A stretch of 20,270 bases of DNA, taken from the IMG/VR virus record IMGVR_UViG_3300012931_000892. One strand, given 5' to 3'. Every line of letters begins with the position of its first letter. Positions within the stretch are counted from its first letter, which is position 1. Origin of the DNA: a virus. Shown in pieces: positions 5,889 to 6,557 of the stretch. The translations under genes were made by a program, and so were the position numbers. The notes beneath the pieces are model-generated. The model was not told the DNA's origin. It did not search any database and was given only the letters and a program-made list of their open reading frames with translations.

Positions 5889-6557
5889 TCAATCCTTCGT
5901 CTTGGGGATGTAAAGCTTGTGCTCCACGATATACTTCAGGACGCCTTTCGGGAGCATGTTCGAGACATCCTCCCCGGCGGCCAGCCGATTCCTAATCATT
6001 GTTGACCGTATGTCCGGCAAACGCGGCTGGTCATCTTTGCCGACGACGATGATCCGGCACTCCCTCTCCAACTCGTCGAACCCCTCCCACTTGTCGCGCA
6101 CCAGCCAGTTGTCCAGGCCGATCACCAGGCTGAAACGCAACTTGACCGGGTAGGGTTCATGTAAATGCGGAGAAACCGAAATTGACAGTTCCTGCGGTTT
6201 GCGCCGCTTCAACTCCCTGACTGTGTTCAGCGTGATGCTTCGACCGCCAATCTCCTTCTCGATGGCACAGATGCGGCAACGACCGTGGGGAAACAGTGTC
6301 GCCGCTTGATGGCACATCTCCAGGCGATGTTTGAATGGGGACAGTCGTTTGCCGAACGCGTGCCGCCAACAAGGCATCATCCAGACTTCGTCCACTTTGC
6401 CAGTACCCAACAGCCAAAAGACAACGGACAAGTGACCGAAGTGTGGTGGGCTAAAGGATCCCCCAAACAAACCGATGCGGCGCGGGCGTTTGGCTAGGGC
6501 ATTGAATCTCTCCTGCGCCTGAAGGAGTGCTGCTCGTCTACTGATGAGCTGCTTCAT
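5889..6557 (-). CDS. nadD: nicotinate/nicotinamide mononucleotide adenylyltransferase (NadD-type NMNAT)
   Basis: 'IGLFGGSFSPPHFGHL' matches the (H/T)xGH nucleotidyltransferase motif of NadD. The C-terminal 'IRSTMIRNRLAAGEDVSNMLPKGVLKYIVEHKLY' matches the ISSTxIR motif. ATG at 6555-6557 with GGAG upstream. Confidence 0.7.
   Translation of the reverse strand: MKQLISRRAALLQAQERFNALAKRPRRIGLFGGSFSPPHFGHLSVVFWLLGTGKVDEVWMMPCWRHAFGKRLSPFKHRLEMCHQAATLFPHGRCRICAIEKEIGGRSITLNTVRELKRRKPQELSISVSPHLHEPYPVKLRFSLVIGLDNWLVRDKWEGFDELERECRIIVVGKDDQPRLPDIRSTMIRNRLAAGEDVSNMLPKGVLKYIVEHKLYIPKTKD

Follow-up and report, generated by a model that had tools for sequence, protein, structure and literature searches.

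A divergent NadD-type adenylyltransferase gene carried by a huge phage, with no NAD-pathway gene found nearby

The viral DNA analyzed here, a stretch of 20,270 nucleotides from the IMG/VR record IMGVR_UViG_3300012931_000892 (hereafter the window, i.e., the whole of this stretch), encodes a NadD-like nicotinate/nicotinamide mononucleotide adenylyltransferase. This protein is probably a functional, divergent NadD-type enzyme, and its gene an orphan auxiliary metabolic gene of a huge (jumbo-type) phage, which would depend on its host for the rest of the pathway leading to nicotinamide adenine dinucleotide (NAD+). Homology, fold, motif conservation, phage context, the monophyly of its clade, and the lack of pathway partners in the flanks read form the basis of this reading. 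We infer from the sequence the enzyme's activity, its substrate preference, and its physiological benefit, be it NAD+ supply or relief from NAD+-depleting defence. Overall, the annotation is solid, without being a surprise.

The open reading frame (ORF) is intact on the minus strand, from its ATG start codon (6555-6557) to its TAA stop codon (5889-5891), with a GGAG sequence about 6 nt 5' of the start. An identical product of 222 amino acids (aa) is encoded on three assemblies, issued from JGI/IMG, Logan, and ENA: an ENA contig of 83,189 bp (ERZ27227667 k141_4595205), a Logan contig of 8,991 bp, and a third contig of 20-50 kb. The ENA contig, the longest of the three, is the source contig. The window corresponds to its positions ~36,354-56,623, with nine mismatches, all located at window positions 19303-20148; it is, therefore, derived from a slightly different assembly or strain.

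The original prediction, made from the letters alone, had placed a NadD-type gene at 5889-6557, and this is borne out by the ORF itself and by all the family searches. The protein matches the Pfam family CTP_transf_like (PF01467) with an E-value of 5.7e-11. Among NCBIfam models, the best is TIGR00482 (nicotinate (nicotinamide) nucleotide adenylyltransferase), with an E-value of 1.7e-29 and model positions 1-194 covered (full-length), and nine more NadD equivalog models rank next. With models of archaeal/NadM-type nicotinamide mononucleotide adenylyltransferase (NMNAT) and of PPAT, the score is just 23-28 bits, versus 103.3 bits for NadD; the cut-offs of the NadM/archaeal NMNAT models are 127-181 bits. 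All PDB sequence matches are NadD or NadD-like, the top one being NadD from Bacillus subtilis (1kam, E 2e-16).

The HxGH motif, also named in the original prediction, is present as GGSFSPPHFGH (residues 32-42), in agreement with the GxFxPxHxxH pattern. Among 120 homologs, H39, H42, and H66 are kept in all 117 that cover these positions, the remaining three being N-terminally truncated fragments; the loss of the catalytic His motifs, which had been raised as a possible objection, was thus not observed upon alignment. G147, D149, and R189 are found in 120/120 homologs, W157 in 119/120, S185 in 116/120, and K70 in 117/118. When aligned with NadD from B. subtilis and Escherichia coli, this conserved set includes the second His of HxGH, the pyridine-stacking His, the GxD aspartate, and the ring-stacking Trp. 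Mutagenesis of E. coli NadD placed His19, Arg46, and Asp109 in the active site, with His45 stacking on the pyridine ring (PMC1249556). The mononucleotide-site residues His45, Asp109, and Trp117 of the E. coli enzyme are conserved by alignment as H66, D149, and W157, and the equivalent of Arg46 aligns with A67; the near-invariant K70 likely stands in for this arginine.

The second motif departs from what had been described: instead of a canonical ISSTxIR, the actual sequence is IRSTMIR, in which S185, T186, and R189 are retained and the first Ser is replaced by Arg184. Arg is found here in the 14 closest homologs and in no others, the remaining 106 carrying Ser (104) or Cys (2), and the form [IV]RSTxxR was found in the six clade loci examined (6/6). 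Purifying selection would account for the active-site residues being kept across 14 clade members sharing just 50-72% identity with the focal protein, and no feature of the protein sequence points to inactivity.

The AlphaFold2 model, generated from an 18-sequence alignment, has a predicted local distance difference test (pLDDT) score of 91.2 and a predicted template modelling (pTM) score of 0.85. Its only weak stretch is a 17-residue insertion (~residues 122-140), common only to the closest homolog, and a helix is found at the N-terminus (residues 2-23). When the model is compared with the PDB using Foldseek, the best 50 matches are all bacterial NadD, with a probability of 1.00, E-values from 8e-15 to 2e-11, and target-normalised TM-scores of 0.7-0.85. 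The fold, the full-length homology, the HxGH motif, the S-T-x-x-R core, and His66/Asp149/Trp157 are, thus, shared with the bacterial enzymes from B. subtilis (1kam/1kaq), B. anthracis (3e27), and M. abscessus (5deo). Unlike these, the phage protein (~25-30% identical to the solved structures) carries the low-confidence insertion and the N-terminal helix, shows the loop PCWRHAFGK where bacterial NadD has PPHK/PPHR, has Arg for the first Ser, scores below the family cut-off, and is phage-encoded rather than found in a cellular nadD context.

In the predicted reaction, nicotinate mononucleotide (NaMN) and/or nicotinamide mononucleotide (NMN) would react with ATP to yield nicotinate adenine dinucleotide (NaAD) and/or NAD+, with release of pyrophosphate. 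The ATP phosphates would be held by H39 and H42 of the HxGH motif, together with S185, T186, and R189 at the start of the C-terminal helix, and the pyridine-mononucleotide site would be formed by H66 (with K70), D149, and W157. During infection, the enzyme would lift the flux at the adenylyltransferase step of host NAD+ synthesis or recycling, using a mononucleotide supplied by the host or by distant phage genes; NadE would also be required if the substrate is NaMN.

The gene had been described as phage-borne, and its surroundings confirm it. The window encodes a ClpP-type head maturation (prohead) protease (phrog_94, E 4e-38), a homing-endonuclease-like protein, an SPFH protein of phrog_200, and a phrog_6077 protein, homologs of which are found in 110 deposited phage genomes. 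It is rich in small same-strand ORFs, most of them without any family match, the only ORFs of at least 400 aa being those of a vault-like protein and of the phrog_6077 protein; the window itself yielded no identifiable terminase, portal, or major capsid gene. Synteny was observed with a contig of 305,730 bp (GCA_902730225.1, CACVFB010000001.1) and with a 441,904-bp viral contig from IMG/VR (IMGVR_UViG_3300029288_005873), as well as with further contigs of 128,897 bp (SRR33452759_13626), 90,103 bp, and 22,908 bp. The vault-like protein shares 45% identity (E ~1e-180) with proteins encoded by LR756500 (462 kb) and LR756501/3 (735 kb), which are huge phages. Viral major vault proteins were described in a 2023 preprint (10.1101/2023.11.10.566534); the gene is not new, but its similarity ties the source phage to the LR756500/LR756501 huge-phage group. 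Given the prohead protease, the endonuclease VII, the phrog proteins, the phage tRNAs, the synteny with large contigs, and the vault-like gene, the source contig is a fragment of a huge phage, the phage origin of which is well supported and the genome of which probably exceeds 300 kb.

The 14 closest database proteins are 50-88% identical to the NadD-like protein. In a neighbour-joining tree of the members with near-full-length sequences, the clade is monophyletic, with a bootstrap support of 194/200, and all the members with an inspectable gene context are located on huge-phage-like contigs. Among 185,579 species-representative genomes, the best cellular relatives do not exceed 41% identity and overwhelmingly belong to the Myxococcota (Polyangia, Kofleriaceae, Haliangiales, Sorangium). 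Judging by these nearest cellular relatives, which suggest a Myxococcota-like source or host, the phage probably obtained the gene from a Myxococcota-like bacterium. Around the Sorangium homolog lie genes for arginine decarboxylase, CcmB, DUF2520, and a sigma-54 activator, which are uninformative as to its status as a housekeeping nadD. Scanning IMG/VR with the single NadD-like sequence returned zero relatives; scanning it with an alignment returned one clade member, on the 441-kb contig, together with distant NadD-type loci. When the window was compared as a whole with 50,697 phage records by megablast, nothing matched. The clade is a new, sparsely sampled phage lineage, recognisable by its altered second motif and without NAD-pathway genes in its vicinity, phage nadD genes having already been described bioinformatically.

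Several observations weigh against a functional NadD enzyme working in NAD+ synthesis. The TIGR00482 score of the protein (103.3 bits) is under the curated equivalog cut-off of 112.45 bits, as are those of the six other clade members tested (84-101 bits), and Arg replaces the first Ser of ISSTxxR clade-wide. The genes strictly conserved beside it have no part in the NAD pathway; they encode an RNA ligase and a protein whose tail is rich in Gly and Cys. Finally, the Pfam annotations include no NAPRTase/Nampt, PncB, NadE, or PnuC/NadR in the DNA covered by the partner search, namely positions 26,354-63,215 of the source contig (36.9 kb of 83,189 bp) and ~120 kb flanking the gene in five related phages. 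TIGR00482 is the best model for all seven clade members tested, the focal protein included. Of four relatives at ~40% identity, three pass the cut-off (P0015, 138 bits; P0024, 137 bits; P0080, 113 bits), and the fourth, P0068, reaches 108 bits.

For the five relatives, the DNA covered represents ~41 kb of the 305-kb contig, 32 kb of the 90-kb contig, ~21 kb of the 441-kb contig, and 13-16 kb of each of two others. In this DNA and the 36.9 kb of the source contig, the Pfam annotations also include no isochorismatase (PncA), Nudix, or KptA gene, and neither 2H nor Macro genes were seen in the clade flanks read. The search for Nampt or Nudix genes that had been proposed for the full contig was, thus, run over 36.9 kb of the 83-kb contig, extended to ~120 kb of the relatives, and none was found. 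The absence of Nampt from the window, stated in the original prediction, stands: neither of the two ORFs of at least 400 aa encodes it, and tblastn with KVP40 NadV against ~160 kb (non-redundant) of six clade phages gives a best E-value of 0.4. Similarly, tblastn with phage NadE, PncB, and PncA against focal-clade DNA yields a single 40-aa match, at chance level (E 0.023). As no substrate-supplying or pathway-finishing gene was found, the metabolic logic of the NadD-like enzyme rests on the host.

Other viral NadD-type genes are found in a different company. On other IMG/VR contigs carrying such genes (23-34% identity to the focal protein), the neighbours in ten loci are NadE (eight loci), PncB (seven), and PncA-like isochorismatase (six), and never Nampt. 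This fits the published pncB-nadD-nadE clusters (PMC11662467), which correspond to the Preiss-Handler route, whereas the focal clade has none of these neighbours within ~10-20 kb. The nadD genes already known in jumbo phages include, beside these clusters, the lone nadD reported for a 735-kb phage (PMC11662467). This phage, LR756501, resembles the source phage in carrying, in a very large genome, a NadD-type gene that appears to be an orphan, and a vault-like protein 45% identical to that of the window. Identity between its NadD and the focal protein is, however, limited to 29%, and it retains a canonical ISSTQVR motif; the focal gene is, thus, a separate acquisition or lineage.

A 361-412 aa unannotated membrane protein, with hydrophobic segments at both termini, adjoins NadD in a PncA-NadE-NadD-...-PncB viral locus (L024, 10992-12230) and in the 441-kb relative (L035, 11223-12308). 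The two proteins share local similarity only (37% over 100 aa, E 1e-14). As a NadD partner, this protein was set aside, since it matches nothing in the PDB or Pfam and does not occur in the window.

The original prediction had framed the gene within the NAD+ reconstitution pathway NARP2, in which Nampt and Nmnat rebuild NAD+ from nicotinamide after its depletion by Thoeris, SIR2, or DSR defences. The enzyme would then be the Nmnat half of such a pair, with Nampt encoded elsewhere in the genome, which we consider unlikely. A distant Nampt could have been missed, as 36.9 kb of the 83-kb contig was covered and the genomes of the relatives span 305-442 kb. Nampt-family genes are, moreover, common in phages, with 1,432 of the 50,697 deposited records carrying one; NadD-type genes occur in 20 records, several of which are short contigs of doubtful origin. 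A further hint comes from Streptomyces NadD, engineered quadruple mutants of which, including Ser-to-Lys/Arg/Asn changes in the second motif (S168K/R), show an increased NMN selectivity (PMC12599879). By analogy, Arg184 might favour NMN, although this is a weak lead, the experimental data coming only from quadruple mutants changed at one or other Ser of the motif.

The framing itself nevertheless finds no positive evidence. The Nmnat of NARP2 is defined by homology to the KVP40 enzyme over two MMseqs2 iterations (bioRxiv 10.1101/2024.02.11.579819), while the focal protein is of the NadD type (~23 bits for NMNAT models versus 103 bits). KVP40 (AY283928), present in the phage collection, is not matched by the focal protein at E <= 1e-3 in tblastn, a search less sensitive than iterated MMseqs2 and involving no direct pairwise comparison. 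What is shared with the KVP40 NadV/NatV system is the HxGH superfamily (PF01467) and, by prediction, the chemistry of the last step, converting a mononucleotide and ATP into a dinucleotide. The focal enzyme differs from it by its subfamily, as judged by tblastn, by the absence of a Nudix domain, and by the absence of Nampt in the clade DNA read. The Preiss-Handler neighbours of other viral NadD-type genes, and the 735-kb phage in which nadD reportedly stands alone, also speak against a Nampt partnership. The NARP3 pathway, which combines a PnuC-like transporter with a NadR-like bifunctional enzyme (PMC13464706), is likewise a phage NAD+-restoring route ending with an NMN adenylyltransferase step, but the focal Pfam annotations contain no PnuC-like transporter, NadR-type kinase domain, or two-gene operon of this kind. 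The NadD-like enzyme may have an anti-defence role.

The features of the window and of the adjoining source contig are listed in Table 1.

Table 1. Location of the NadD-like gene, its motifs, and other features of the window and source contig.
Feature	Position	Strand	Size, evidence, or remark
NadD-like nicotinate/nicotinamide mononucleotide adenylyltransferase gene	5889..6557	minus	222 aa; ORF, TIGR00482, PF01467, 1kam, AlphaFold2, Foldseek
FGGSFSPPHFGH codons, (H/T)xGH ATP-binding motif	6432..6467	minus	Residues 31-42, with H39 and H42; read from sequence
IRSTMIR codons, ISSTxxR variant	5991..6011	minus	Residues 183-189, Arg184 for first Ser; read from sequence
Gly/Cys-tail neighbour	5529..5885	minus	118 aa; helical hairpin and Gly/Cys-rich tail (GGDGCGGCGSGGGGGCSGCGSQTP); 3 nt past the NadD-like stop
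Endonuclease VII/HNH (homing-endonuclease-like) gene	6608..7315	plus	phrog_1035 endonuclease VII, E 7e-36
Small ORF between RNA ligase and NadD-like gene	7349..7543	minus	64 aa; gene call on source contig
RNA ligase	7545..8258	minus	237 aa; PF09414, E 2.6e-22; phrog_24030 RNA ligase, E 1e-14
Vault-like protein	2064-4634	minus	856 aa; Major Vault Protein shoulder, E 2e-26; vault repeat, E 4e-11
SPFH/Band-7 gene	window 1-921		Vault-like gene 1.1 kb upstream of it (in transcription direction)
Phage tRNA-Lys(TTT) and tRNA-Arg(ACG)	L036 3957-4032, 5468-5543 (source contig)		~1.0-2.6 kb right of window end

The gene directly downstream of the NadD-like gene, in 6/6 clade loci and at gaps of 2-31 nt, encodes the 110-125 aa Gly/Cys-tail protein. 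For the focal copy, AlphaFold2 predicts two helices (residues 6-38 and 44-71) and a disordered tail; the hairpin is followed by a conserved segment, RLRPTKIEDRGY, and then by the Gly/Cys-rich tail with a terminal Pro, the composition of which resembles that of metal-binding or microcin-B17-like peptides. Just 18 homologs, none of them annotated, were found among 5.8 billion proteins, with 55-79% identity to the focal copy, and no match was obtained in Pfam, NCBIfam, PHROG, or PADLOC. The RNA ligase gene, the product of which has no match among PDB sequences, is located upstream in 5/6 clade loci, being missing only in the 441-kb relative (L035). Between the RNA ligase and its 64-aa neighbour on one side and the NadD-like gene on the other, the endonuclease VII/HNH gene is inserted on the opposite strand. 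Homologous endonuclease VII ORFs occur in L003 and L037, the latter reverse-strand at the equivalent place; ORFs of 61-80 aa occupy the position matching that of the 64-aa ORF in L003, L121, and L122, and L003 carries a GIY-YIG gene upstream of the RNA ligase.

The 50-nt divergent intergenic region between the NadD-like and endonuclease VII genes contains a 6-bp hairpin, TCCGAA-N10-TTCGGA (~6565-6586). The Rfam scan of the window, which would cover NAD+ riboswitches for example, returned zero matches, and the promoter and terminator scan found no more sites than in shuffled sequence. PADLOC, run on ten window proteins, matched nothing.

The neighbourhood of the Gly/Cys-tail protein and the RNA ligase is the sole recurrent linkage of the NadD-like gene. 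It raises the question of a neofunctionalised nucleotidyltransferase acting in another module, for example by providing NAD+ or a dinucleotide locally for RNA repair or capping, or by acting jointly with the Gly/Cys-tail partner, an explanation to which we give little credence. It would be consistent with the clade-specific Arg184 and the sub-threshold NadD scores, and with the adjacency of the two genes being maintained in all six loci even where the surrounding genes differ. The partner proteins, in addition, share 55-79% identity with the focal copy, versus 50-72% for the NadD-like proteins. The RNA ligase upstream in most loci, the CCA-adding enzyme, Metallophos phosphoesterases, and tRNAs of these phages would suit a link with RNA repair, which in phages uses NAD+ via KptA (PMC9503650). 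However, the residues lining the pyridine-nucleotide and ATP sites are all conserved with cellular NadD, the flanks read contain no recognised gene of the KptA, 2H, Macro, or Nudix type, and the RNA ligase is absent at the locus of the 441-kb relative. As synteny extends over the entire region in this clade, the adjacency of the NadD-like and Gly/Cys-tail genes may also reflect common descent rather than function.

A bolder proposal, which we also hold to be unlikely, is that Arg184 and the invariant, near-abutting Gly/Cys-tail protein, usually with the RNA ligase, are the mark of a functional module specific to phages, as opposed to plain NAD salvage. In a first version, the enzyme may be an NMN-preferring, single-step NAD+ regenerator, the activity or localisation of which is controlled by the small partner. 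In a second version, it may supply a dinucleotide to phage RNA repair or RNA capping.

The idea that the locus is a bacterial chromosome or a mis-binned fragment carrying a housekeeping nadD, which had been named as a possible refutation, is effectively excluded: Myxococcota NadD proteins are the nearest cellular relatives and several deposited 'phage' NadD matches come from short contigs, which may be of host origin, but the cellular relatives stop at 41% identity, versus 53-61% on contigs with phage-type synteny, the clade is monophyletic, and the dense small same-strand ORFs, prohead protease, homing endonuclease, phage-family proteins, tRNAs, and synteny with the 441,904-bp viral contig all speak against a chromosomal locus.

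Phage control of host NAD+, through NARP1, NARP2, and NARP3, constitutes an active front of phage-defence biology. Read as a functional, host-dependent NadD-type enzyme, the focal gene adds to it a distinct, phage-specific NadD lineage, apparently working without a phage-encoded pathway partner. If the enzyme is active, it would pay a huge phage to carry a gene that boosts the adenylyltransferase step alone. With its naturally occurring Arg, the second motif also offers a ready test of the determinants of NaMN versus NMN preference in NadD enzymes.

Other genes of the source phage and its relatives were noted along the way. The source contig (L033 17190-18644 and 20298-20921) also encodes a TnpB/Cas12f-like protein (484 aa) and a CCA-adding enzyme (PolyA_pol and HD domains), both just beyond the window, as well as an exonuclease of the Rv2179c-like type and an endonuclease VII; together with the RNA ligase and the tRNAs, the CCA-adding enzyme and the TnpB, exonuclease, and endonuclease genes suggest a set of tools for maintaining or repairing tRNAs. 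A conserved cluster, located some 3.6-5.7 kb to the left of where the window starts (L033 14556-16639), contains a small RfaE-domain-II-like nucleotidyltransferase (153 aa; TIGR02199, E 9e-26, under the cut-off), a 107-aa ORF, a YciA-like 4HBT thioesterase, and a Metallophos phosphoesterase. This second CTP_transf_like gene just outside the window was considered as an NMNAT and rejected, due to its RfaE-domain-II-like character. The nucleotidyltransferase and Metallophos genes of this cluster recur in L035 and L037/L124, and L122 ends with a small CTP_transf_like gene. In L123 (305-kb relative, record positions 254,292-274,921) and L124, a second PF09414 RNA ligase (288 aa), a PP2C phosphatase, and a pyruvate-kinase-like gene are found, along with a DnaJ-protein kinase fusion, R2K-type ATP-grasp genes, and a weak radical-SAM match.

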